DNA of 64,000 bases from a virus (IMGVR_UViG_3300016725_000002:64001-128000); one strand, 5' to 3'. Counted from the stretch's first letter, positions 1,997 to 14,548 are shown. Notes: generated by a model from the sequence alone, not told the origin. A program made the numbers and translations.

Positions 1997-2005
1997 AAGT
2001 TCTCC

Positions 2006-2647
2006 CTATGTATTAATTTGAGTGTAGTTAAATTTAGCTAAGGTATTAACATCAAATTCATTATTCCTAATACTTCTAATTAATTTATCTTCTTTACTAA
2101 ATATCAAGTAAGAACCAAGAGAAAAACCTGCTTCATACATGTAAATCAGACCCGTTTCTTCATAAGATTGGCTTTTTGTACCGGAAGGAGGAAGTGTCGG
2201 GTCTTCAAAAGCAGTCAACGAGCAGTCAAGTTCAATATCAATACTGTCGTTTATATAAAACTGCACTGGAATTTTACAATTATTTTGAAGCGCATAATAT
2301 CTAGTAAGTAAATCAAAGCTAGAAAGTTCATCCTGACAATACAAAGTACATGAAAATGTCATAATAATAGGACGCACATTTAATACAAGCGATTTGGTTC
2401 CACCAGCATTATCAGTCATTTGAAATCTAGTTGGTTTAGATGGCCCATTTCGTTGGCTGATTTGAGTTAATGTAAATATTAACCCAGGAAAGGTAATCCT
2501 ATCATCTTTAAGTTTATTAAAATACGCATCTGAATCACCATAAACAACCACGCCAGGATCGTTATTTTGATTTAAAATAGGGTCAGTACCTTCAAAAAAG
2601 AATGACTTTAGATATGCCGCAGTATGGGCAATACTTGTTCTAATCAT
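2006..2647 (-). CDS. Putative tail completion/terminator (neck) protein
   Basis: Lies between capsid and sheath genes; FPGLIFTL...RPIIMTFSCTLYCQD pattern resembles tail terminator folds. Confidence 0.45.
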   Translation of the reverse strand: MIRTSIAHTAAYLKSFFFEGTDPILNQNNDPGVVVYGDSDAYFNKLKDDRITFPGLIFTLTQISQRNGPSKPTRFQMTDNAGGTKSLVLNVRPIIMTFSCTLYCQDELSSFDLLTRYYALQNNCKIPVQFYINDSIDIELDCSLTAFEDPTLPPSGTKSQSYEETGLIYMYEAGFSLGSYLIFSKEDKLIRSIRNNEFDVNTLAKFNYTQINT

Positions 2648-2997
2648 TTTATTATACTAGCAAATACTTCAACTTTTAATGTATTAGTTATCTTTATTCC
2701 CTTTAAACCTTCACATTCATATAGCAGCATATTACATTTTTCTAGTGTAACTATTTCATCTGTGGTTGTTATTAAGTTAATTGTGAATGGCTTTTCATCT
2801 CCGAAATAGTTACTAAGAAAAATGAATGTACTGCTATTAGACACATCAAAATACTTAAATTCTTCAGGGGCAAATTCAATCTTTGGCATATAATTAATGA
2901 AATTAGATAAGTTACAACCACGACTATATGAACCTAGTTTATTGCGGGTTTTATCAACACTTAAACCTAAAGATAGATCAATGTGAAGGGTTGACAT
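2644..2997 (-). CDS. Hypothetical protein
   Basis: 117-aa ORF with GGAG RBS; 4-nt overlap with next gene. Confidence 0.6.
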   Translation of the reverse strand: MSTLHIDLSLGLSVDKTRNKLGSYSRGCNLSNFINYMPKIEFAPEEFKYFDVSNSSTFIFLSNYFGDEKPFTINLITTTDEIVTLEKCNMLLYECEGLKGIKITNTLKVEVFASIIK

Positions 2998-3013
2998 TTA
3001 TACACTCCGTAGT

Positions 3014-3057
3014 AAAAAAGCCCTTCGATAACTTGTAACGGTTATCGAAGGGCTTTT
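3014..3057 (-). terminator. Rho-independent terminator after capsid operon
   Basis: Perfect stem AAAAGCCCTTCGATAAC / GTTATCGAAGGGCTTTT, 8-nt loop, T6 tract on minus strand. Confidence 0.9.
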
Positions 3058-3088
3058 GAGGTCTTAGTTCCCTAAAACCGTTGAGGTT

Positions 3089-3493
3089 TTACCACTTGGT
3101 GTTGGCGAGGCGGGCCACAGAAGCAGGAACCATGACCTTGCTGGTCATTGTGCCGCCGTCATCGTCCGGGTCGGTGTTGGTGTCGTCAGGATCAGTGTCG
3201 TCATCGTCCGGGTCGGTGTCGGTGTCGGTGTCCATGTCGTCATCAGCGTCATCATCGGCGCTGTCGAGTTCATCCTGGTCAGTGTCGAGCATGTCTGTGT
3301 CCATGTCGTCATCAGCATCGTCTTCAGAAAAGCCGAGAGATTCGGCAACGCCGTGCATAACGGGGTCAAGTTCCTGACCCTCGCAAGCAAGGCACATCAA
3401 ACGACCGGCTTCTTCAGCCTGACCAGACTTGCCAGCAATATAAGCCTGAGCTAACAGGCGGCCCTTTGTCACAATTTTAGCGTTGATCTTCAT
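3089..3493 (-). CDS. Highly acidic (Asp/Thr-rich) head-associated protein
   Basis: Directly after MCP; DDADDDMDTD occurs twice plus TDPDD repeats; same GC-rich codon usage as MCP. Confidence 0.6.
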   Translation of the reverse strand: MKINAKIVTKGRLLAQAYIAGKSGQAEEAGRLMCLACEGQELDPVMHGVAESLGFSEDDADDDMDTDMLDTDQDELDSADDDADDDMDTDTDTDPDDDDTDPDDTNTDPDDDGGTMTSKVMVPASVARLANTKW

Positions 3494-3521
3494 GTTTGTT
3501 CTCCTGAAAACTAGTCAGCGA

Positions 3522-4577
3522 CTAGCTGTTAGCGAGGCGTTTGCCCTTAACGATAGAGCGGGTGTTGGCGACCATCATGGAAGTGATCTGGTCGAAGAAC
3601 CAACCACGCTTGGACTGGCCCTGATTGTAGGTATTGATGGGCTCCGTAATCAGATTACGGGCATGCATCACACCGTGGTATTCAGGGGAAGCAATGGCGT
3701 ACAGGTCGCCAGCTTCGAGAACACGCATGTTGGGGCCGCGCACGGCGTCAGACACGATATTCACGCCATACATCTGGCCGATTTCGCCAGTCTGAAGCAC
3801 TTCGTACTGGGTAACGGGGTCAAACACCTGCTGGAACTCTGAACCAGAAATGATATCCTGGTACAGGTTTGAGGAAATGAGCAGGGTTGAGGGCGGCAGG
3901 CCTTCGTTCGTGATAATGTTAATCATGCGGGCGAAGATCTGCGGGGTGAAGGACATGAAGCTCTGCACGTTGTAGCGTGAAGTCGCCGCCACGTCAGCCA
4001 GCTTCTTCCAGAAGCGGTCTTCCGTGACCATGAGGGCTTCAAGGCATTCATCGTATTTTTCTTCCAGCAGGTCGTTGGGGCTGCGCTGGATTTCCATGTT
4101 GGTGATAAGGATTTCGCTCGTGATGCTGAACTCGTTCAGGATCTGGCGGCGTTCACGCGCTTCCACGGGGATGACGCGGCTTTCACTGGACATGGCGTAG
4201 GCAATGGCCTGTTTGTCACGCATGGTGACATAAGGCAGGTCGCCGGATTCCAGAGGTTTGAACTGGAGGAAACGGCGGGCAAAGCCGTCACGGTTGGTCT
4301 GGTCGAGAACTTCGCTTGTAACGGCTTCCGCAAGAATAGCCATTTTGTGGCCGCTCTTGTCAGTGGAGGCTTCAACGAGAGCCTTGGTACGTTCGCGGCG
4401 GGCGTTGACGTTGGCTTCGATGGTAGCCTTATCTTCAAACTTGCCGGAAGCAAGCAGTTCAATAGCTTCTTTCACCTTGGTGATTGCGTCAGCCTTGCAA
4501 GAGGCGTTGATTTCACCGCCATTGTTGAACAGGACGGAACCCCTGCTCTTTGATAAGCCAGGAACTAGAGTTTTCAT
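3522..4577 (-). CDS. Major capsid protein (HK97 fold)
   Basis: 351 aa; EDRFW helix, LISSNLYQDI, TGEIGQMYGVNIVSD and C-terminal RGWFFDQ..MVANTRSIVKG resemble jumbo-phage capsid proteins; strongly biased codons; followed by terminator. Confidence 0.8.
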   Translation of the reverse strand: MKTLVPGLSKSRGSVLFNNGGEINASCKADAITKVKEAIELLASGKFEDKATIEANVNARRERTKALVEASTDKSGHKMAILAEAVTSEVLDQTNRDGFARRFLQFKPLESGDLPYVTMRDKQAIAYAMSSESRVIPVEARERRQILNEFSITSEILITNMEIQRSPNDLLEEKYDECLEALMVTEDRFWKKLADVAATSRYNVQSFMSFTPQIFARMINIITNEGLPPSTLLISSNLYQDIISGSEFQQVFDPVTQYEVLQTGEIGQMYGVNIVSDAVRGPNMRVLEAGDLYAIASPEYHGVMHARNLITEPINTYNQGQSKRGWFFDQITSMMVANTRSIVKGKRLANS

Positions 4578-4602
4578 GTGATTCTCCCTTTAAATCTTTA
4601 CG

Positions 4603-5265
4603 TTATATACGAATGCCCAGGAAGGGAGTGTCAACGCCGGGCACTGACACAACAGAACCGGGAATGGCAGCCAGAGTGCCGTTGCTCGCCTGCATGCCAA
4701 CCAGACCTGTAGCGGTCACGCACAGTGACATAGAGGTGTCAGCGAAGTTGGCTTTGGCGTCAAACTGGTCAGTATACACGATACCTTCCATGATGACGCC
4801 GATGCTGCCCAGCATGTCGGTTGAGGACATTGTGGGGATAAGCACGCGGTCTTCCATAAGCACTTCAGTTGTGCTGGGTGCGTAGCGATACTGCACACGC
4901 ACGGCCATGCCCTTGTTGGCGTCGGGCACTGTCACTTCTTTGCCGGAGACTGTGCATTCAATGGCGGCGCCAGATGTGGCTAGGTACACGGAAAACTGGC
5001 CGGTCAGGGGCTCGTTCTTGAGGATCAATTTGCCAGTTTCGGAGTTGGCGGTCAGCACTTCAACGGCTGATTTGGTGAGAGGAGTGAGGGATTCAGTGTA
5101 GCTGAAGCCCACGAAAGGAGCAACGGTGGTGTTGCCCTGACGAACACATTCCTGCCCGTTCACGATTTCACGAACGAGGGGAAGACCTTCTGCATTCACA
5201 GTCTGGCCGGGGACGATGGCGATTTCCTGTGAATTGAGAATCATTAATCTACCGGTGTGTAACAT
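4603..5265 (-). CDS. Putative capsid decoration/cement protein
   Basis: Immediately upstream of MCP, beta-rich, same GC-rich codon bias. Confidence 0.55.
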   Translation of the reverse strand: MLHTGRLMILNSQEIAIVPGQTVNAEGLPLVREIVNGQECVRQGNTTVAPFVGFSYTESLTPLTKSAVEVLTANSETGKLILKNEPLTGQFSVYLATSGAAIECTVSGKEVTVPDANKGMAVRVQYRYAPSTTEVLMEDRVLIPTMSSTDMLGSIGVIMEGIVYTDQFDAKANFADTSMSLCVTATGLVGMQASNGTLAAIPGSVVSVPGVDTPFLGIRI

Positions 5266-5286
5266 GGGATTTCCTCCAAAAAAGAA

Positions 5287-6537
5287 TTAACGCCGGCGAA
5301 GATTCAGCCGACTCTTTAATTCTGTAACAGAATCATCCTTCACAGAAGAAGTAATTTCCGTCACAGAAGGGTCGAGTAAACGCATGCTACTAGCATTCAA
5401 CGCGGCCCGCACTTTATGATGTTCGGCATCTTCAGCAGTAAAACTGCCGGTGTTTGCCGCACAAATCATAGCCTTAGTTTCTTCAAACACAGGCTGAGGT
5501 TTCTTTAAAAGAGCCACAGCCTTTGCAAGAATGGAAGCGTATAGGGTTGTAGCATTGTTTCCCAATACGGAGCTAACGCAAGCTTCAACCCTCTCACGAG
5601 GAATGCCGCTACCAATTAGCTCATTCATCATGTTATCTCGTAATTCTTTATTAATATCTGGGTAAATGCCTTTAATGCCACCTTCAGTAGCTAACGCCAT
5701 GCACTCGATTAAACGAGGAAGGACGCTATCATTGATTCGGGCTTGAGCAAGGCTTTCAATGTACGCAGGAGTTAAAACTTTATTGCTAAATATTGAACCG
5801 CCAAACTTAGATACGGCGGAACCGACACCTTCAGTTTTGGCTATATGCTTAAATCCAGAAATCATGGAAGTGGTTCCAAAGATACTCTGAATATCAGCAG
5901 AACATTTATTACGTTTAAAGACGTACATTGGATTGCCAGTCTTTGCACTGAAAGCAACCAATGTTCCGTCCGGGCCATTCTCGGCATCGTTTACTGACTT
6001 CCACTGAAGGTCATCAGTATCATCCAAAGATGATTTAACATCATCCTCGGTGTCAGTGGCCCTATTATCAATAACGTCATCATCAACTACGGAATCATCA
6101 TCGTTAGCGTCGTCATCTGACTGGTCATCTGCGTTGACTTCATCGCAGCTACCGTCAGTGCATGCGGCATCAGAAAAGGGGTCAGTTCCATCTTCTGAAT
6201 CATCCGCAGAATTGCATTCAGAAGCTTCACATAATGAAGCTCCGCCGCAAATAGGACAATATAAAGAAGCACTTAATTCAGAACAAGTACGATTGGCATT
6301 TGCAATGCCAAGTTTTGCGCCGCAATCCGTACAAGTAATTTCAGCTTTGTCGGTTTGGTTTACACCAGCAAGCACGTTTGCTTTAACTTGTGTACCTTCA
6401 CCTTCAAACTTCTCGCCACAATGAGGGCAAATGGTAATTTCATTCTTGCTGCCAAGAATTGAGTTACCACAAGCTGTGCAGGAGAACTTTGCAAGAGCTG
6501 ACTTTGACGAATTGGCTGTTATAACCAATGTATTCAC
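5287..6537 (-). CDS. Putative prohead core/scaffolding protein with two Zn ribbons and an acidic linker
   Basis: GTG start with GGAGG RBS; CTACG..CPHCG and CTDCG..CPICG; D/E-rich middle; basic C-terminus (RLNLRRR); first gene of head operon. Confidence 0.5.
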   Translation of the reverse strand: MNTLVITANSSKSALAKFSCTACGNSILGSKNEITICPHCGEKFEGEGTQVKANVLAGVNQTDKAEITCTDCGAKLGIANANRTCSELSASLYCPICGGASLCEASECNSADDSEDGTDPFSDAACTDGSCDEVNADDQSDDDANDDDSVVDDDVIDNRATDTEDDVKSSLDDTDDLQWKSVNDAENGPDGTLVAFSAKTGNPMYVFKRNKCSADIQSIFGTTSMISGFKHIAKTEGVGSAVSKFGGSIFSNKVLTPAYIESLAQARINDSVLPRLIECMALATEGGIKGIYPDINKELRDNMMNELIGSGIPRERVEACVSSVLGNNATTLYASILAKAVALLKKPQPVFEETKAMICAANTGSFTAEDAEHHKVRAALNASSMRLLDPSVTEITSSVKDDSVTELKSRLNLRRR

Positions 6538-6570
6538 AGTCCCTCCGATTATATATTACGGTATTTTAAT

Positions 6571-6577
6571 TAAACTG
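6571..6577 (-). promoter_or_regulatory. CAGTTTA motif (candidate late promoter element)
   Basis: Intergenic, about 34 nt upstream of the head operon; same 7-mer occurs at other gene junctions. Confidence 0.45.
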
Positions 6578-6593
6578 TTGAATGTCATTAAAT

Positions 6594-6929
6594 TTAAAGC
6601 GAATATAGCAATTTATCTAAGTCTAAAATTGAAGGGTATGTAATTACCCTTCCAGAATAGCAATCTAAAGGTGTTAGCATGTCATTATAGAGCATTAAAG
6701 GTACTTTGTATGTTACATATCCATAAATATTATATGATAGTAAATCAGGTCGATATATTTCAGTTATAATCGTATAACTACCAGCAGCAGAAATACTTTT
6801 AATATAATAAGCAAAGGAACTACCTAAAATATCATACATTCCTGCATTATCTGTCATCCAAGGTATAATTTTACCAATATCATACTTTAATGTGGATTGA
6901 AACGCTAAATTTGGCTTTTCTAACGCCAT
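6594..6929 (-). CDS. Baseplate wedge protein, T4 gp53 / LysM-like
   Basis: YRPDLLSYNIYG...LMLYN...GRVITYP motif. Confidence 0.7.
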   Translation of the reverse strand: MALEKPNLAFQSTLKYDIGKIIPWMTDNAGMYDILGSSFAYYIKSISAAGSYTIITEIYRPDLLSYNIYGYVTYKVPLMLYNDMLTPLDCYSGRVITYPSILDLDKLLYSL

Positions 6930-6943
6930 AATTTACCTCATAA

Positions 6944-7462
6944 TTATGAATTAAGTATCACCTTAAATATTGCGTCAACAATCTTTTTTGCGGGTTGCTT
7001 TTTCACCGCAGTAAAAGGTATGTTGTTATTTTCGAGGAATTGTGTGATTTTGGTGTCAATTTGCAGACTTTCTTCTTTTGTGTATAAACAGGGTTTATTA
7101 AAACCATTTATACGGGGGAGCATAAAATTCAAGTTTTCATATGAATTAAACAAAGTTAATGCGAGTTCTTCAAAAGGGCGTTGTATTAGACGTTTTTTGT
7201 TGTAAATAAGCGGAAGCAAAATAGGCGAATCAAGTATCACGAAATCAGTCTTCTTTCTTAAACGATCTAATACCAATTCTTGCTTTGCAAAAATATGTAG
7301 TTGATGTTTCAATGTATCTTTTCTATCAATTAAGACATTATATTTTGCATAATCTGTTATTACTTCAACTTTTAAATCAGCGCAAACCATTGCATCAAAT
7401 ATTCTAGCAGCACAAGTAGTTTTACCAATATTCGGGCCACCAAATAAGTTGATTACTCTCAT
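6944..7462 (-). CDS. P-loop NTPase/kinase (NadR/AAA_28-like)
   Basis: VINLFGGPNIGKTT Walker A; VILDSPILL; ESLQID motif of this phage family. Confidence 0.75.
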   Translation of the reverse strand: MRVINLFGGPNIGKTTCAARIFDAMVCADLKVEVITDYAKYNVLIDRKDTLKHQLHIFAKQELVLDRLRKKTDFVILDSPILLPLIYNKKRLIQRPFEELALTLFNSYENLNFMLPRINGFNKPCLYTKEESLQIDTKITQFLENNNIPFTAVKKQPAKKIVDAIFKVILNS

Positions 7463-7476
7463 CCCCTCTTCCTTGG

Positions 7477-8382
7477 TTAAAGGTGATTAACGCACCAATC
7501 ATACAATGTTGCAGACGGGCGCATATCATAACACCAATCTTGGTCAAGTAAGTGTTGATAAAAGATGCTAAAGTTTTCACTAGTTAGCCCGGTAGTTGTT
7601 GCGTAGCATTTATCACTATATACATCTGATAAAGTCGTATGATAATTAGATACACAACTAAGTATATCATCTATACCATCAACATGGTTTCTTGCAGGTA
7701 AAGTAGGACATATAATTTGCTTACCACATTGTAATGCTTCTAACAAAGCATTAGGAAAAGGGTCAATGAACATTGCGCTTTTAGGAAAGTAATAATGAGT
7801 AATATGATTAAAGAAATCAACTGCATCATGTGTATGATAATGTTGTTTAATCATTGGATGTGTTAGATATGTAGTAGCATTACCCATAGTTACTAATGAA
7901 ATTGGTTTAGTTAACTGATCTAATTCATAACGTAAATACTCAATTGCATCTGGATTTGTATGAACTCTAGCATAAAAACCAACTACGGGTTCGGTTGGTT
8001 TAGAGTCAACTGAAAAGTTAGTAATCATTGGTATAAATGCGTTAAAGAAGTTATTACTATTATACATACTTAATCCATTAGTTATAGGTCGTTGAAGAAA
8101 CTTATTTACACTATTTCTAATATAAAAAATCATATTCAATCGCCTAGCTTTAATTACATTATAATGAAATGCGTATAATTCTGGAGCTTGAAATGTACTA
8201 ATAACTTTAAATTTAGTTGTTAACTCTTCTAAATTTGGTATTTCCGTATCAACTTTAAAATTAAGATTATGTTCTACACAAAATCGTTTTGTTACAGTAT
8301 ATGACCCACGCTTAGCCAAGTCATACTTCTTTCCAATTAAACAATATTTAGAAGAACTTTTCATTATATACCTTAAATGCAC
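7477..8382 (-). CDS. Glycosyltransferase (GT-B fold, GT4-like)
   Basis: VVGFYAR and PKS..FIDPFPNALLEALQCGKQII match the E/D-x-F-x4-E-A-x3-G nucleotide-sugar-binding motif. Confidence 0.7.
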   Translation of the reverse strand: MHLRYIMKSSSKYCLIGKKYDLAKRGSYTVTKRFCVEHNLNFKVDTEIPNLEELTTKFKVISTFQAPELYAFHYNVIKARRLNMIFYIRNSVNKFLQRPITNGLSMYNSNNFFNAFIPMITNFSVDSKPTEPVVGFYARVHTNPDAIEYLRYELDQLTKPISLVTMGNATTYLTHPMIKQHYHTHDAVDFFNHITHYYFPKSAMFIDPFPNALLEALQCGKQIICPTLPARNHVDGIDDILSCVSNYHTTLSDVYSDKCYATTTGLTSENFSIFYQHLLDQDWCYDMRPSATLYDWCVNHL

Positions 8383-8929
8383 GCTTAATTTCTGCTATTG
8401 ATTTTGCTACTGCAATTTCTTGGCAGAAATGTATATAAATATCATACCAATTCTTCTTTTTATCCATTTCATTTTTAGCATCAATAAATAACTCTAATAT
8501 TGTTTCATCTTTATCATTATTTGAATCTAATACTTGTTCAATCAATTGCTCCAATGAAGTATATTTGTAATGAGATAACAAATATGAATACATTGTATAA
8601 TCATAAAAAGCAACATCTAAGTTATCTTGTTGAGAACGAGAGTTTAGTATTATTCTAGCTTTTAACTTGAATGATTTTTTAGCATAATCCAATTTTTCAA
8701 TACTAGAAATAACTTCTTTGTTAACATTTAATTGAGATATATGTTCCAACTTTGTAGTTGAATCAATAGTTATAAATCCTAAGCCTAAATCAAAAGTATT
8801 ATGGATATTACGCAAATAACGATATACTTCATAGCTACATTCTATATAATTCTGACTAGTATTATTTACCTTTATAACCCCGGTAATCAAAATAGTATTA
8901 CCGGGGTTAATTATAGCACCGTATTTCAT
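8348..8929 (-). CDS. Hypothetical protein (partner in radical SAM cluster)
   Basis: 193 aa, AGGAG RBS, helical C-half; sits between Cys-repeat gene and glycosyltransferase. Confidence 0.6.
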   Translation of the reverse strand: MKYGAIINPGNTILITGVIKVNNTSQNYIECSYEVYRYLRNIHNTFDLGLGFITIDSTTKLEHISQLNVNKEVISSIEKLDYAKKSFKLKARIILNSRSQQDNLDVAFYDYTMYSYLLSHYKYTSLEQLIEQVLDSNNDKDETILELFIDAKNEMDKKKNWYDIYIHFCQEIAVAKSIAEIKRAFKVYNEKFF

Positions 8930-8947
8930 AGTGGCTCCTATGAATGG

Positions 8948-9400
8948 TTAATAATAATAATAACGATTAGAATAGTTACAATCGCAAGTACATCCATATG
9001 CACAGTTGCAGCTACAATAATTACAATTACAGGTGCAATAATTGCACTGACATATGCAAACAGCTTGAGAAATATTAATAGCATTTTGAATTTGAGCTAA
9101 TAATCTATTAGTAACTTTTGCCCCAATAGCATAGTTATTCCATGTTATTGCAGCTTTACCATCATTTGCATTACAAGTATTTATACTGTTAATTATAAGA
9201 GATAATGCAGAATTTTTAGCTTTATTACCAACAGCAATTGATTCCCATGCAGGAACTGCTTTACCACGAATGTTTAATTCTGCTGTTAACGCATTAATTG
9301 TTTGGGAAAAGAAAAGAGGTTTTAATTTTGCACCTGCAGTGATAACACTAGTCCACTGAGTTTGTGCTCTAGGTCCTATTACCTGATTCGTACATGCCAT
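8948..9400 (-). CDS. Fibre-like protein with C-terminal CxCxCNY repeats (putative radical SAM substrate)
   Basis: Three W..[AVI]GxK-helix repeats then CICQCNY CTCNCNY CSCNCAYG CTCDCNY; start overlaps end of rSAM gene. Confidence 0.75.
   Translation of the reverse strand: MACTNQVIGPRAQTQWTSVITAGAKLKPLFFSQTINALTAELNIRGKAVPAWESIAVGNKAKNSALSLIINSINTCNANDGKAAITWNNYAIGAKVTNRLLAQIQNAINISQAVCICQCNYCTCNCNYCSCNCAYGCTCDCNYSNRYYYY
8972..9058 (-). repeat. Four tandem CxCxC[NA]Y coding repeats (12 Cys in 29 aa)
   Basis: Read directly from translation; DNA copies diverge at synonymous sites. Confidence 0.95.
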
Positions 9401-10472
9401 ATTTTTTCCTTTGTATTTTTATGAGTGCATATGTAAACTTAGATATTTCTTGTTGAATTAAACAAGCATTTTTATCGCAGGCATAATCTGTTAATTTAGA
9501 GGAATATCTAACTTTATTACTTTTATCATAATTATGAATAGGACATTTATAACAAACTAATGTAGAACATTTATCACAAGCCGAAGGTTGTTTATATGTA
9601 CAATTTAAACCCATCATTGACTTTATACTATTATTAAATATATCACCTCGTACATGTTGATTCTTAGTTGGACTAAAAATACAGCCATGACATAGATAAA
9701 CTATTCCATCACAATCAATACATAAACTATTATCACCTGCAGTACAAAATTGTCTATTATGTGCAAACCAATTAAAGTTATGTTTTGTATTGTTAGTTAC
9801 TATATCTGTTAATATTGTAGTTAATTGATTTCTAAAGGTTTGAAGAGTCTCAGTTGAAAATTGTGGAAATGGTGCATCTGTAACAAAATTTAAACGTAAG
9901 TTTACATCTAATGCAGGATTAATAGTTCGCAGTTCTTTACGAAGTTGGCAGTAATTAAAATAAATTTGTTCAATATATGTAATTTGTGAAGGTTTAATTG
10001 TAGCTTTCAATGAGAATAAAATATCATTTTCAGCTAAGGTTTTAATATTTTTAAGTACCTGAGTATTTGAAGATTGACCTTTAATATTCAATCTATTTAA
10101 ACTTTGAATCGGTTCAAAATCATAACTAACTTGGAATTGAAAATTATACTTACGCCATTTTTTAATATAAGGTATTAATTTATCTATCTCATATCCATTA
10201 GAACTAGTAAAAAATGATTTTACATATCCGTGTAATTTACTCATTATATAATCCATACTCTTATATTCAAGAGTTGGTTCCCCACCCCAAAATACAATAG
10301 AGATTGTATGTGCTGCACCTAATAATTGTTTAAATTCTATTATTCTTTCAATACTCTTATCAAGGACTTCTTTACTAGTACGAATTGGTTCATAACTGCA
10401 CCCACTCTCATAGCAATAGGTGCAACGTAAGTTACAGCTATGAGTTAACATTAAATCTATAGTATAGTTCAT
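9369..10472 (-). CDS. Radical SAM enzyme with SPASM-type domain (peptide/protein maturase class)
   Basis: CNLRCTYC (CxxxCxxC), FWGGEPTL, SNG, VSYD; C-terminal CTAG..C..DG.VYLCHGC..CDKC..CYKCP auxiliary-cluster cysteines. Confidence 0.92.
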   Translation of the reverse strand: MNYTIDLMLTHSCNLRCTYCYESGCSYEPIRTSKEVLDKSIERIIEFKQLLGAAHTISIVFWGGEPTLEYKSMDYIMSKLHGYVKSFFTSSNGYEIDKLIPYIKKWRKYNFQFQVSYDFEPIQSLNRLNIKGQSSNTQVLKNIKTLAENDILFSLKATIKPSQITYIEQIYFNYCQLRKELRTINPALDVNLRLNFVTDAPFPQFSTETLQTFRNQLTTILTDIVTNNTKHNFNWFAHNRQFCTAGDNSLCIDCDGIVYLCHGCIFSPTKNQHVRGDIFNNSIKSMMGLNCTYKQPSACDKCSTLVCYKCPIHNYDKSNKVRYSSKLTDYACDKNACLIQQEISKFTYALIKIQRKKYGMYESGNRT

Positions 10473-10490
10473 ATTGGCTCCTTTGGTGAA

Positions 10491-10865
10491 CTATAATGCA
10501 ATAAAGCTTGCAGCGTGGAATGAGAAGAATTTAGTACCGTTACAAACAATCATAATACCTTCATTGGGAGATAAGGATTTGGAAGCATCATTATCAATTA
10601 GTTGCGTACTTAAAGAAGATTTAACTGTTATTTCAGTAGATCCATTATTTTTAATAAATAAATGAAATCCATCACTTAACGCTGTAGCATTGGGTAATGT
10701 GACAGTAAATGTACCACTTCCAGAAAGGAATTTACGGTAGTCATCAGAAGTTACAGAATAGTTAGCAGTTATTTCAGAAACAGTAATAGGACTACTAAAC
10801 TTTTGCATATTTTTAACTGCATTCATTATGTCTTGTTTTTCTTTCAGGGTGAAGGTATATGCCAT
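10491..10865 (-). CDS. Small tail-fibre-type structural protein
   Basis: TVTLPNA..DGF..IKN.G..LID..L.P.EG..IVCNGTKF beta-sandwich repeat seen in phage fibres; related to C-termini of 10875 and 20472 ORFs. Confidence 0.55.
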   Translation of the reverse strand: MAYTFTLKEKQDIMNAVKNMQKFSSPITVSEITANYSVTSDDYRKFLSGSGTFTVTLPNATALSDGFHLFIKNNGSTEITVKSSLSTQLIDNDASKSLSPNEGIMIVCNGTKFFSFHAASFIAL

Positions 10866-10874
10866 GTTAAACTC

Positions 10875-11276
10875 CTAGATTATCCACCATTTATTACCGT
10901 CATACATAAGACGAACACCGTTTAATGGATCAAGTATAAGACCTATATCTCCATCTAATGCAGTATTAAATGTAATCTGTTTAGTAGCATGAATATTTTT
11001 CACATAAATAATATAACCCGCAGTAGTAGATGATAAAGTAACATTAATACCTGCATACGATGAACTTTCTATTAAGTATGTAGAACCCGGAGTAGGTGTA
11101 ATAGAAAACTTTTGATTATCTTGAGTAGCAGTAAGTAATACTATTTCAGTAGAACCACCATTTGCTAATTTATAAGTACCATCATCCGCAAGAAATTTTT
11201 TACCATCACTATCAATTATAATACGACCTATCTTTTCATTGAGAGTATCTAAGTTTCTTAGAACTTTTGGTTTCAT
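10875..11276 (-). CDS. Small tail-fibre-type structural protein
   Basis: DGKKFLADDGTYK fibre motif; C-terminal LMYDGNKWWII. Confidence 0.55.
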   Translation of the reverse strand: MKPKVLRNLDTLNEKIGRIIIDSDGKKFLADDGTYKLANGGSTEIVLLTATQDNQKFSITPTPGSTYLIESSSYAGINVTLSSTTAGYIIYVKNIHATKQITFNTALDGDIGLILDPLNGVRLMYDGNKWWII

Positions 11277-11284
11277 ATTATCTC

Positions 11285-12022
11285 CTACGCCATAACAACT
11301 ATTTCAGTACCAGCATCATAAGAATCATAAAATTTAATACTATTACTAACAATACCAGATGTACCAATTTCATTATAAGCATAATAGTTACTATCTGAAC
11401 CACCAACACATAAAACACCATCTACAAAAACAAGTAAAGCATTAGTTCCCACTTTATAGCTAGGAACACTTATATCTGTATCAGCAATTAATTTACTTGA
11501 TAAAATAGTGACCATTTTGGTAAGGCTTGAGCCACCAGAACCACCACTTCCACCGTATGCATCAACAATCTTTTTAACTAAAGCAGGTGTAGCTGCTTTA
11601 TCCTCACTAGATACATCAAAACCAGAAGCATATAAAGTTAAACCTGCATTAACTGTAGTAGCCATGCCAATGTCAGAAGCAGCAGGGCCTAAATCATTGA
11701 TAAAACCATGAACACGGGCGGAAACGCCAATAGTATCACTATAAACATAAATAGTTTCCTGCGTGCTAACAACAACACGGGATTTAGTAAAAGTAGATCC
11801 ACCATCAATAGGCTGGTTAAATACAATATAATCTTCAGTATTAACTGAATCAGTAGATGCAGGAATAATTGCTATTCTAACTTTTGCTCGGGTGCCACCA
11901 CGATTGCACATGACTATATCTACGGTAGCAGCATTGGTACTGCTGTTATACCATATTTTAGTCAGCACACCTTGCTGACAATCTAGTTTACCAAATACAC
12001 CGCTTGTAACGGACATAGACAT
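11285..12022 (-). CDS. Putative virion structural/fibre protein
   Basis: CNR...RIAI...EDYI N-domain; DKAATPALVK fibre repeat; Gly linker; YKVGTNALLVFVDGVL C-domain. Confidence 0.55.
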   Translation of the reverse strand: MSMSVTSGVFGKLDCQQGVLTKIWYNSSTNAATVDIVMCNRGGTRAKVRIAIIPASTDSVNTEDYIVFNQPIDGGSTFTKSRVVVSTQETIYVYSDTIGVSARVHGFINDLGPAASDIGMATTVNAGLTLYASGFDVSSEDKAATPALVKKIVDAYGGSGGSGGSSLTKMVTILSSKLIADTDISVPSYKVGTNALLVFVDGVLCVGGSDSNYYAYNEIGTSGIVSNSIKFYDSYDAGTEIVVMA

Positions 12023-12039
12023 CTCCTCTTCATAATGAT

Positions 12040-12077
12040 ACTAGGGGAATACCAGTATAAACTAGTATCCCCCTAGT
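12040..12077 (-). terminator. Stem-loop downstream of the GC-rich fibre gene
   Basis: Minus strand ACTAGGGGGATACTAGT-TTAT-ACTGGTATTCCCCTAGT; fully paired only on the minus-strand RNA (two G-U pairs); no U tract. Confidence 0.65.
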
Positions 12078-12106
12078 GTTTAGTAGCTGATTAAATCAGC
12101 GTTCAA

Positions 12107-13420
12107 TTAAGCTTTAACGTGGGGGTACACAACCACAGAATAAGCGATATCCTGTGTCAGTGTTTCGGCCAGGGTGATGGTGGTGCTGTTGGTCAGCACG
12201 AAAGCATCACTGGACTGGCGAATGCCGCTCAGGTACACTTCAAAGTAGTACACGCTGGAGATGGCAGTGCCCAGAGTGATGGTGCTGCTGCCGGAAGCAA
12301 CAGTACCTTCATAGGTGGTCACAGCGGTGACGGCAGGAGTGGAGCTGATTTCCACGAAGGTCTTGCCGGAGGCAGAAGTAAGCACATACACCTTTTTGGC
12401 GTATGTGTCAGACGCACCGCCTGTAACCACGAACAGGAAGCCTTCCTGCGCGGCGGTGGGAACCAGAGTGGCAAAGTCAGTAGCAGAACCCTGCCAAGCC
12501 ACGGCAGTGCGGCTCAGGCGTGAGTCATTGCCTTCGCAAGCTGTGCCCGCGGTCGTGCCGTAAACGGCAGTCAATGTAACGTCAGCAGACAGGGCGCCGC
12601 CGCCGGAAAGACCAGTGCCAGCGATAACCTGACGGGTAATCGGCACAACGCTGGTGATCTTGGTGTCCGTCCATGCGCTGGTGTCACTGTCCCACACCCA
12701 CACGGAGTCAGTGGCTTCAACGATAGCGTAGGAACCAGCTTCAGGAGCAGGATTTGCGGCCACAAGGGCGGCTTCCGTTGTGTAGTAACCCTTGAGCAGT
12801 GAGGCCTGCTTGATTTCCTTGGTGACGTAGGTTTTCAGGTCAAGCGCGGTGGTCTTCTTGTTGTCCGTACCCAGCTGCATCGGCAGTAAGGTGACGTCCG
12901 TAATGTCAGTTGAAGCCAGCGCGGCGAAACCAGAGAAGTCCTTGTTCAGCTTGAGGGCCAAACCATCGGTCAACTGCTTAACCTGCACAGCGCGGTCAGT
13001 AGCTGTTCCGGTGGTAATGTCACCAGCAGAAGCAATCTGCACAACACCGGGAGTGTCAGTGGTAGCCAGGGCGCCGCCAACGGTCACGTCATTGCCGTTA
13101 GCAGTAACGGTCACGCCCGTGCCAGCTTTGATGTTGGAAGCGATAAGCTTGGTGTCAAGAGCGGTCTGAAGGCCAGTCACCTTGTCAATGGTGATGCCGC
13201 CCACGAGGCCAGAACCGGCGATAGGCGTCCATGTCAGGGCTGACGCGCCGATGGTCTTGAGCATGAACAGAGCTTGTGTGTCGTCTTCGAGGAAGAGGAA
13301 GTTCACGTCACTTGCGGTGACATTGGCGGGAAGCATGCCAGTGCGGTCAGCACTTGTGCCTGTCCAACGAACTGGCTGGGGGTTTTTGAGTAAGGAAGTA
13401 GGGATACGTGTGATACTCAT
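12107..13420 (-). CDS. Putative high-copy fibre protein
   Basis: IDKVTGLQTALD, GVVQIA, AGTGLSGGG.L..DVTL, YGTTAGTACEGNDSRLS are common phage fibre motifs; GC-rich codons like MCP. Confidence 0.7.
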   Translation of the reverse strand: MSITRIPTSLLKNPQPVRWTGTSADRTGMLPANVTASDVNFLFLEDDTQALFMLKTIGASALTWTPIAGSGLVGGITIDKVTGLQTALDTKLIASNIKAGTGVTVTANGNDVTVGGALATTDTPGVVQIASAGDITTGTATDRAVQVKQLTDGLALKLNKDFSGFAALASTDITDVTLLPMQLGTDNKKTTALDLKTYVTKEIKQASLLKGYYTTEAALVAANPAPEAGSYAIVEATDSVWVWDSDTSAWTDTKITSVVPITRQVIAGTGLSGGGALSADVTLTAVYGTTAGTACEGNDSRLSRTAVAWQGSATDFATLVPTAAQEGFLFVVTGGASDTYAKKVYVLTSASGKTFVEISSTPAVTAVTTYEGTVASGSSTITLGTAISSVYYFEVYLSGIRQSSDAFVLTNSTTITLAETLTQDIAYSVVVYPHVKA

Positions 13421-13800
13421 GGTTTTTCTCCACTGTTTTTGGTTAGAAGTCTAATGACTTCATCTGAAACATTAATGTTTTTAATTTTAGCATTAGGCCT
13501 TAATTGTCGCCACAATTGGTACAAAATAGGGTCATTTTTACATGTGTATTCTTTACATGTTTTAGGTCGTATCTCATATATTGTACATCTGTTATCAGAG
13601 CCGAGAAACGGACAAACCAATCCCGGCCCCTTTTTCAATAATAATAATGTTTTACCATCCTTTACAAAAACATTAGCTATATCACTAATGTTTTTATTAA
13701 ACTGCGTAGCAACACGCTTGGCTTCTTCATATGTTAACTTAATCTCGCCAGCTACAACGCAGCATAGACCAGGACATGAATTGCAACGCTTTACTTGCAT
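13417..13800 (-). CDS. YkgJ-family cysteine-cluster (CxxCxxxCC) protein
   Basis: CNSCPGLCC...CPFL...CTIYEIRPKTCKEY. Confidence 0.85.
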   Translation of the reverse strand: MQVKRCNSCPGLCCVVAGEIKLTYEEAKRVATQFNKNISDIANVFVKDGKTLLLLKKGPGLVCPFLGSDNRCTIYEIRPKTCKEYTCKNDPILYQLWRQLRPNAKIKNINVSDEVIRLLTKNSGEKP

Positions 13801-14000
13801 TATAACTCCGATAATTCTCGCATTGCTTTAAGCATATTTTCCCAATTAGAATAGATAAGTTTGCTATTTTTCTTCATTCCAACGAATTTTTTAGCTCTTT
13901 TACTGATTATTTGGTATAACTTAAAGAACTCATTCTTTTGTTCTTCAGTAATACCTGAATCCTCAGATTTAGCTTCAATTTCAATATAATTGATTTTCAT
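13800..14000 (-). CDS. Small hypothetical protein with leader MKINYIEIEA
   Basis: 66 aa, GGAGG RBS. Confidence 0.6.
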   Translation of the reverse strand: MKINYIEIEAKSEDSGITEEQKNEFFKLYQIISKRAKKFVGMKKNSKLIYSNWENMLKAMRELSEL

Positions 14001-14008
14001 GATTCCTC

Positions 14009-14548
14009 CTATTTCCTAAAAGCATTAAAATCAACTCTTTTATTAAATACACCAGTACCAAAGTAATATCCAATTACAGTATCAAACTTTGCACTAGCAT
14101 ACCCAATAACTGTACCAACTAAACCTATTTGATTTACATCTAAGTTCTTAAATTGAGAAGAAAATACAAAGATAACACAAACAATAAAAATTATAGCTGT
14201 CGTAATTGCTAAAATAGCAGGGGTAATTTTATCTTCTTTTAATGATTTAATATATGCTAAATTAGCATTATCCTTGTCAGTATTTTGACTAACAAGTACA
14301 TCCATATTAATATTTAATTCGGTTAACTTATCAGTAACAATAGATTCAACATTCTTTAAGTTTTGAAGGTGTTCCGAAGAACAGTTATTAATGTTGGTTT
14401 GTAATGTTTCTTCAGAGGTATCTGTTGGAAGTTCAAGTGCTTTACAGACTTCGGCACGAACAAAACTATAAAGTATTGGACTTGTTAATGCTAACGCTGC
14501 CTTAGGTGCTACTGTAGAAATTGAATCTATCCAATTTTGTTGCCCCAT
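14009..14548 (-). CDS. Putative holin-like membrane protein
   Basis: Two C-terminal hydrophobic helices ending in TVIGYYFG. Confidence 0.6.
   Translation of the reverse strand: MGQQNWIDSISTVAPKAALALTSPILYSFVRAEVCKALELPTDTSEETLQTNINNCSSEHLQNLKNVESIVTDKLTELNINMDVLVSQNTDKDNANLAYIKSLKEDKITPAILAITTAIIFIVCVIFVFSSQFKNLDVNQIGLVGTVIGYASAKFDTVIGYYFGTGVFNKRVDFNAFRK

Follow-up and report, generated by a model that had tools for sequence, protein, structure and literature searches.

A candidate virion-protein modification cassette in an uncultured jumbo phage, linking a radical-SAM enzyme to a cysteine-heptad fibre-type protein

The stretch IMGVR_UViG_3300016725_000002:64001-128000 (64,000 nucleotides (nt), here called the window, with positions counted from its first letter) comes from an uncultured jumbo phage and carries a cassette that an earlier annotation, made from the DNA alone (the sequence-only reading), had put forward as a candidate system for modifying a virion protein. 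The listing and translation of open reading frames (ORFs) bear out the four co-directional genes named there, all of them on the minus strand, as well as the 32-nt overlap of the first two, which share 9369-9400. Specifically, the first gene encodes a 367-amino-acid (aa) radical S-adenosylmethionine (rSAM) enzyme with a SPASM-like C-terminal domain (9369..10472), belonging to an orthogroup termed rSAM-A, and the second a 150-aa protein of apparent fibre type with a Cys-rich tail (8948..9400), as read from its translation and the alignment of its relatives. They are followed by a conserved 193-aa partner, assigned to the ‘c1’ family by a family profile and also modelled with AlphaFold 2 (AF2) (8348..8929), and by a 301-aa GT-B (GT4-like) glycosyltransferase (GT; 7477..8382), for which gene callers place the start 6 codons later, yielding 295 aa. 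Directly behind lies a 172-aa P-loop protein (6944..7462, minus strand; Pfam AAA_28 at 32.9 bits), a probable accessory of the cassette. Intergenic gaps and overlaps do not exceed 35 nt throughout 12022 to 6594, and the cassette genes are thus packed in an operon-like manner; a promoter and terminator scan of 6000-14200 gave counts no different from those of shuffled sequence.

The 150-aa protein starts with Met-Ala-Cys, continues with three repeats of about 35 aa (W...G.K followed by a helix) and ends in a tail of Cys heptads. Both the tail and the repeats had been described previously and are present as described. The tail reads CICQCNY-CTCNCNY-CSCNCAYG-CTCDCNY and then SNRYYYY; its four consecutive CxCxC[N/A]Y units (residues 115-143, coded by 8972..9058 on the minus strand), which are the presumed modification target, pack 12 Cys into 29 residues, out of 14 in the whole protein. 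The three W-x2-h-x-h-G-x-K repeats with their helices occupy residues 16-50, 52-85 and 87-114 and match conserved blocks in relatives. In an alignment with 12 relatives, C3, E41, R45 and the Cys and Tyr of the heptads are invariant. The protein matches phrog_26958 and is homologous to the middle of CPt10_1891 from a Campylobacter phage, while none of 13 heptad proteins has a family in Pfam or NCBIfam. At the DNA level, Tandem Repeats Finder recovers a 21-bp unit in 2.1 copies at 79%; the DNA array has diverged, so that conservation acts on the protein. The heptad consensus of the family is C-T-C-[N/D/Q]-C-N-Y plus a spacer of 0 or 1 residue (N6 and Y7 being inflated by the search pattern), and it yields two nested C-x-x-[N/D/Q] motifs per unit. 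A homotrimer prediction with three copies of the protein and an alignment scored 0.00, which weighs for neither side. Three relatives (L062:6390-7082, L064:5152-6816 and L063:6140-6778) carry before the conserved domain an N-terminal extension of repeated C-x-x-H-x(5-6) units, of which the window protein retains only the invariant Met-Ala-Cys start; this extension could be a second metal-binding or modification site.

The enzyme has the rSAM cluster motif CX3CX2C at C13/C17/C20 and scores 42.5 bits against Pfam Radical_SAM (PF04055; cutoff 29.5), which places it in the radical SAM superfamily. Invariant in 18 orthologues are C13/C17/C20, GGEP at 63-66, C243, G246, C261, C299, C302, C307, C310 and C337, and the seven C-terminal Cys follow the SPASM order with the spacing CX2CX4CX2C, a variant of the canonical CX2CX5CX3C. 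The curated SPASM domain PF13186 gives no match at E <= 0.1 in this enzyme, and its SPASM membership is assigned because of the Cys pattern and of the full-length alignment to the models of PapB and of anaerobic sulfatase-maturating enzymes (anSME); its C-terminal region also aligns to the SPASM region of CteB. The best NCBIfam models are those of Cys-peptide maturases (PapB at 6e-27, CXXX-repeat, Cys-every-fifth (CefB) and SCIFF), and also anSME, and the best match in the PDB is CteB (5WGG), followed by anSME. By its score, which is far below the equivalog cutoff, the enzyme is a relative of the PapB family and not a member of it. The alignment to CteB begins at residue 101 of CteB, and the window enzyme starts 12 residues before CX3CX2C, which indicates that it lacks the N-terminal recognition element (RRE) of enzymes that act on peptides made by the ribosome and then modified post-translationally (RiPPs).

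Searching for relatives with the 150-aa sequence itself confirmed no related locus, and a search for proteins of near length returned just one relative; a DNA pattern was used instead. The back-translated pattern (CxCxCNY)x2 found 52 loci in IMG/VR, where all matches lie inside long ORFs that read CxCxCNY, so that the repeat is not a chance feature; the encoded proteins have 140-540 aa and bear 4-28 units near the C-terminus. The identical pattern found just 5 contigs in one genome per species of 185,579 prokaryote species, and the family is therefore mainly viral. After dereplication of the IMG/VR loci into 34 groups, the co-occurrence that the sequence-only reading expected could be counted: it stands firmly for the enzyme, with an rSAM gene within 3 kb in 28/34 groups, and for the 193-aa protein, with a c1 member recognized by the family profile directly downstream of the Cys gene, within 1.5 kb, in 24/34 groups. 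For the GT it stands in part, as this family is present in 6/34 groups and the others are without it. In 19 groups the Cys gene has an orthologue of the window enzyme itself (at least 90 bits) no more than 3.6 kb away. The apparent exceptions L020 and L037 have 8 and 11 rSAM genes, respectively, elsewhere in the record, and another group without a nearby rSAM gene, L014, spans just 1.1 kb and has hardly any flanking sequence.

The linkage also holds in the opposite direction. When six rSAM homologues were found from the enzyme sequence alone and their contigs read, a protein with a Cys-rich tail followed directly after the enzyme in 6/6, and a c1 gene came next in all five testable cases (E 1e-24 to 1e-35). 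It survives changes in repeat grammar, since in L075, L076 and L077 Cys-rich repeats of other grammars precede the fibre domain S74 (see below), and L073 has a 511-aa protein with 93 Cys after the enzyme. Among cultured phages, the enzyme family matches 15 of 50,697 records at E <= 1e-8, all of them Firehammervirus and the same phages that hold the heptad gene, which is the only cultured co-occurrence. Of the DNA of the window cassette, only the heptad-coding part matches cultured phages (the 534-aa Firehammervirus gene), and the heptad protein of L063 gave no match to cultured phages by tblastn, presumably owing to the low-complexity filter. The further suggestion that an oxygen-sensitive enzyme would fit an anaerobic host is left unsupported, as the only cultured carriers infect microaerophilic Campylobacter and the window is silent on oxygen.

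The comparative evidence on linkage supports a conserved functional unit made up of the rSAM enzyme, the Cys-tail protein and the 193-aa protein. Nearest to the window cassette is L063, which keeps the full gene order 244-132-124-rSAM-Cys-199-GT-111, and the window cassette is a minimal form with one rSAM gene, four heptads and no S74. Its carrier is a jumbo myovirus; the capsid protein of this phage shares only 33-35% identity with its counterparts in jumbo phages of the PaBG, Erwinia and Vibrio types, from which it follows that the module has moved between lineages. A further family, c3 (about 300 aa), occurs in 25 loci and in the genome of the window phage and has no sequence match in the PDB; hhalign against the GT family gave no more than a 36-column local match around a D-P-x-P...E...K motif at 1% probability, which was rejected as evidence of kinship.

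A connection that had escaped the sequence-only reading concerns the S74 chaperone, a C-terminal domain that serves the folding of trimeric phage fibres and spikes. In 18/34 groups SDxRLK comes straight after the last heptad, and six of these groups have the full Peptidase_S74 domain (for L017, PF13884 at 34.3 bits against a cutoff of 22), and in other relatives the remainder of S74 is a separate small ORF. Many heptad proteins of this split form end 12 residues into S74 (SDxRLKxxIxY), examples of the split being L046:6013-6318 and L062:7093-7383. At L023:4685-7600, one ORF for the S74 remainder serves as the sequel to four heptad genes in tandem, which suggests a chaperone working in trans. 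For the 150-aa protein, the nearest structural cluster in the Atlas is a viral family of which 91% bear S74 (template modelling score (TM) 0.70). At the level of the particle, gene 3-9 (60.3 kDa) of the Campylobacter phage IBB_35 is among the proteins identified by mass spectrometry (MS) of purified virions, with 2.6% coverage (PMC3322345, supplement). The statement that the N-terminal part is not a classical RiPP leader thus agrees with the position of S74 directly after the heptads in relatives and with the presence of the Campylobacter homologue in the virion proteome, and comparison across the family supports a fibre-type protein over a leader-core RiPP.

Among the partner families of the cassette, that of the 193-aa protein is the most constant, a point that had not been noted previously. 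The AF2 model of this protein (pLDDT, the predicted score in the local distance difference test, 86) combines a small beta domain with a helical bundle. Profile search against the PDB, Foldseek against the PDB, VIA wide and BFVD, and an Atlas shape search gave no significant fold match, only generic helical bundles; there are weak, sub-threshold hints toward DUF4376 and tail-fibre-assembly proteins. A phmmer search of 1.8 billion representatives returned 7 matches, 13 c1 members share no Pfam family, and no RRE match was detected in the partner, whose N-terminal domain was barely covered by that search. It is possibly a helper in fibre assembly or in presenting the substrate.

For the 301-aa protein, the assignment to GT-B agrees with its predicted structure (AF2 model with pLDDT 90.3 and predicted TM 0.89), the top Foldseek matches in the PDB all being GT-B: SenB, BshA, BH4 glucosyltransferase, PglA and Gtf3/GtfC. 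There are 39 PDB matches at E <= 1e-3 and, among the matches listed, the TM by query is mostly 0.44-0.59. The score for Pfam Glyco_trans_1_4 (24.6 bits) lies just below the cutoff of 27, and a profile of 13 GT homologues found no PDB sequence. Homologues follow the pair of Cys and c1 genes in L015/L043, L040, L062, L063 and L064, amounting to at least six lineages. Cassettes of relatives add genes for GT2, UDP-glucose dehydrogenase, an epimerase, a KdsA-like enzyme and a cytidylyltransferase, so that glycosylation looks like a recurrent theme; in the genome record of the window phage, the GT2 family PF00535 has no match. At L064:8897-15360, genes encoding DAHP_synth_1 (KdsA-like), rSAM/SPASM, transaldolase-like, cytidylyltransferase and epimerase proteins come after the GT, and this set hints at a Kdo-like or nonulosonic sugar donor. 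The AAA_28 protein is 32% identical (4e-24) to an AAA_28 protein encoded between rSAM genes in the unrelated cassette L075 and may be a recurrent cassette accessory.

The surroundings of the cassette are structural, as had been claimed: it has tail-fibre-like genes on one side and, on the other, a gp53-like gene and the genes for a head protein and for the major capsid protein, and is part of the late structural module. Directly upstream of the rSAM gene are three small fibre-like genes of 245, 133 and 124 aa (10491..12022, minus strand; PHROG tail-fibre matches), with similar-sized genes in identical order in L063 and L072. Downstream comes a 111-aa gp53-like or baseplate-wedge-like gene (6594..6929, minus strand; phrog_15542 at 1.6e-10, phrog_7145 at 6e-4 and a weak match to Pfam Phage_gp53), and L063 likewise has a 111-aa gene after its GT. 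Between this gene and the head genes, 5287-6537 (minus strand) encodes a 416-aa protein with several N-terminal CxxC pairs, then a long acidic stretch, and no PHROG match. A 127-aa CxxCxxCC protein (13417-13800, minus strand; PF03692, a putative zinc/iron-chelating domain) is encoded directly upstream of a 437-aa fibre-like gene, a pair also found in the related contig L072. The guanine-cytosine content rises to 0.42-0.50 at 2000-6000 and 12000-14000, against a background of 0.28; this is where the genes for the major capsid and head proteins and the 437-aa tail-fibre-like gene lie.

Beyond the window, the genome record (161.7 kb, 59% complete) contains 18 rSAM-like ORFs, 17 of them outside the window, while 10 of the 18 are above the Pfam cutoff. 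About 16 of these ORFs form an island 10-35 kb upstream of the window (about 29.8-54.9 kb of the record, where L065 is 26-44 kb), which also holds a second c1 paralogue (276 aa, about 37 kb from the cassette) and a c3 gene. Neither the extra rSAM ORFs nor the second helper paralogue had been recognized before. The number exceeds that in the Campylobacter group II phages CP220 and CPt10, which have 11-12 radical-SAM genes (PMC2853527). Beside the second helper paralogue, L065:6799-7167 (minus strand) encodes a 122-aa protein with two copies of GHGTI...TC[KR]C, which could be another substrate.

True homologues of the heptad array and the preceding helix are found in the Campylobacter Firehammervirus proteins CPt10_1891, CPT_0180 and IBB_35 gene 3-9, and an orthologous rSAM gene (28% identity, 7e-45, full length) lies 2.3 kb from the heptad gene. 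The arrangement differs from that of the window in that three unrelated genes lie between the two and no c1 or GT homologue is adjacent, and the protein differs in its length of 534 aa and its long Cys-rich C-terminal extension. A 21-bp intragenic repeat in this gene was noted without interpretation (PMC2853527), and no proposed function for the protein was found in the papers examined. With S74 fibres such as endosialidase and T5 pb1 the family shares the SDxRLK cleavage motif, at which the heptads of relatives end and where trimeric fibre tips end; known S74 fibres, however, have neither Cys repeats nor rSAM partners, and the window protein has lost the S74 stub.

As for the chemistry, the closest precedent is CrpC, a SPASM enzyme of Methanococcus voltae whose ranthionine links on CrpA, a 28.8-kDa Cys-repeat protein, were shown by MS, and the same work links a C-x-x-[N/D/Q]-type motif to rSAM thioether formation (PMC13692751, 2026). 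As in the window, a SPASM rSAM enzyme stands beside a Cys-repeat protein instead of a short peptide, the repeats carry C-x-x-Q/D motifs comparable with the C-x-x-[N/D/Q] of the heptads, and there is a second small protein, which in the CrpC/CrpA cluster raises the yield. However, the system comes from an archaeal cell, not from a virus; CrpC, a member of TIGR04463, has an RRE; the CrpA repeat spans 17 residues and not 7; and fibre context, S74 and glycosyltransferase are missing; beyond the rSAM superfamily the proteins of the two systems have no sequence family in common. PapB (NF047865) and CteB (5WGG), which among curated models and solved structures match the window enzyme best, are enzymes with three iron-sulfur (Fe-S) clusters that make thioethers from Cys to Asp/Thr side chains, yet their substrates are 40-50 aa long with leaders, CteB has an N-terminal RRE and the window enzyme scores far under the cutoffs. 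The anSME (4K37) is an RRE-less SPASM enzyme that modifies Cys/Ser in a full-length folded protein, its NCBIfam model aligning to the window enzyme over the full length, and sets a precedent for such an enzyme acting on a whole protein; in contrast to the window, which has neither a sulfatase nor such a motif, it makes one formylglycine per sulfatase at C/S-x-P/A-x-R. For the sugar, the sequence-only reading had envisaged the Cys glycosylation of ribosomal peptides by the glycocin GTs SunS and ThuS. Those enzymes belong to GT2/GT-A, a different type from the GT-B of the window, and GT2 genes occur in related cassettes.

The best reading, held with modest confidence, is that an RRE-less SPASM-type rSAM enzyme forms cross-links at the C-x-x-[N/D/Q] motifs in a virion fibre protein, assisted by the helper and the GT. 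A module of four to five genes would mature a protein of the phage particle, its substrate being the 150-aa short fibre-type protein, with heptads at the place where the S74 chaperone of relatives would directly follow. Because C-x-x-[N/D/Q] occurs twice per heptad and is the motif tied to CrpC chemistry, thioethers from Cys to side chains are proposed for the window enzyme: it would probably take hydrogen from Asn/Asp/Gln (or Thr/Tyr) side chains within the heptads and bond these to Cys sulfurs, giving ranthionine-type cross-links at the nested motifs. The evidence is strong for the two-way gene linkage and for the fibre type of the Cys protein; that this enzyme acts on this protein, and by this reaction, is suggested by analogy with the systems above. 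From their position in the cassette, the 193-aa partner would probably aid folding or present the substrate, and the GT-B enzyme would probably add a sugar to the 150-aa protein.

Several observations weigh against this proposal. The cross-links are argued wholly from analogy; the enzyme is far below every curated equivalog cutoff (94.7 bits for PapB, where 340 are needed) and is without the RRE that CteB and CrpC use. The heptad loci L019, L028 and L054, in records 7-23% complete, show no rSAM gene. The window protein has no S74 stub (it ends NYSNRYYYY), the genome record has no match to PF13884, and the virion detection in IBB_35 comes from 2.6% coverage of a distant homologue. Finally, relatives have many extra rSAM and sugar genes, some of whose rSAM enzymes could act on sugars and not on protein, and GT-B is also the fold of enzymes that glucosylate phage DNA.

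In one alternative the Cys heptads are a metal-binding, Fe-S or disulfide ladder along the axis of a trimeric fibre, like the HxH iron sites of T4 gp37, with the rSAM enzymes acting elsewhere, e.g. on unusual sugars that GTs then attach to the fibre. The extra N-terminal C-x-x-H repeats of relatives indeed resemble metal sites, their cassettes are rich in sugar-nucleotide and GT genes, the 18 rSAM-like ORFs are more than one substrate seems to require, and SPASM/twitch enzymes such as BtrN act on sugars. Nevertheless, the orthogroup beside the Cys gene is closest to Cys-peptide maturases and anSME and not to sugar enzymes, it tracks Cys-tailed proteins without nearby sugar genes and across repeat grammars, and the minimal cassette of the window holds a single rSAM and a single GT gene, all of which makes the ladder rather improbable. 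Less probable still is a RiPP precursor whose 114-residue leader is cut off and whose modified Cys peptide is released as an antimicrobial or signal. A Cys-rich C-terminal core beside an rSAM/SPASM gene does reproduce the layout of ranthipeptide and sactipeptide clusters (PMC13692751), but the substrate candidates have 140-540 aa, neither the window cassette nor the conserved gene set includes a protease or exporter (transporter), the enzyme is without the RRE of classical rSAM RiPP systems, the array is fused in relatives to the fibre chaperone domain or is part of a 534-aa virion protein, and the gene sits inside a structural module; we regard this option as highly improbable.

A narrower system is also conceivable, consisting of the rSAM enzyme, the Cys protein and the 193-aa protein, with the GT and AAA_28 genes as unrelated neighbours (the GT acting, for example, on DNA or the host envelope). 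It would fit the small share of groups with this GT and the absence of the AAA_28 gene from the closest relative, L063; the T4 DNA glucosyltransferases are also GT-B enzymes. Where present, however, the GT gene is the immediate neighbour downstream of c1 in lineages far apart (33-77% identity), and other GT types replace it in other cassettes, so that this separation appears unlikely. Returning to the cross-linking of a fibre protein, a more general proposal can be made only tentatively: phages of several unrelated lineages may staple a virion fibre protein at its tip, and probably glycosylate it there, through dedicated RRE-less rSAM enzymes acting on a folded or folding protein, a class without a described example, with up to 18 rSAM-like genes in the present genome serving it and related chemistry. 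No paper describing the modification of phage structural proteins by rSAM enzymes turned up in searches of the literature.

The thioether chemistry of rSAM enzymes is known from small bacterial peptides and, since 2026, from one archaeal protein. If the proposal is true, its use on a protein of the phage particle would be a new kind of virion maturation, in which covalent, redox-proof cross-links arise within the reducing cytoplasm and a receptor-binding tip is possibly glycosylated as well. It would also explain the 15-year-old puzzle of the 11-12 rSAM genes in Campylobacter group II phages (PMC2853527), and the cultured Campylobacter phages, whose heptad protein has been detected in the particle, make the idea directly testable. 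Stapled tips could, moreover, bear on host range, on how stable the phage is in the gut and on how robust phage fibres are engineered.

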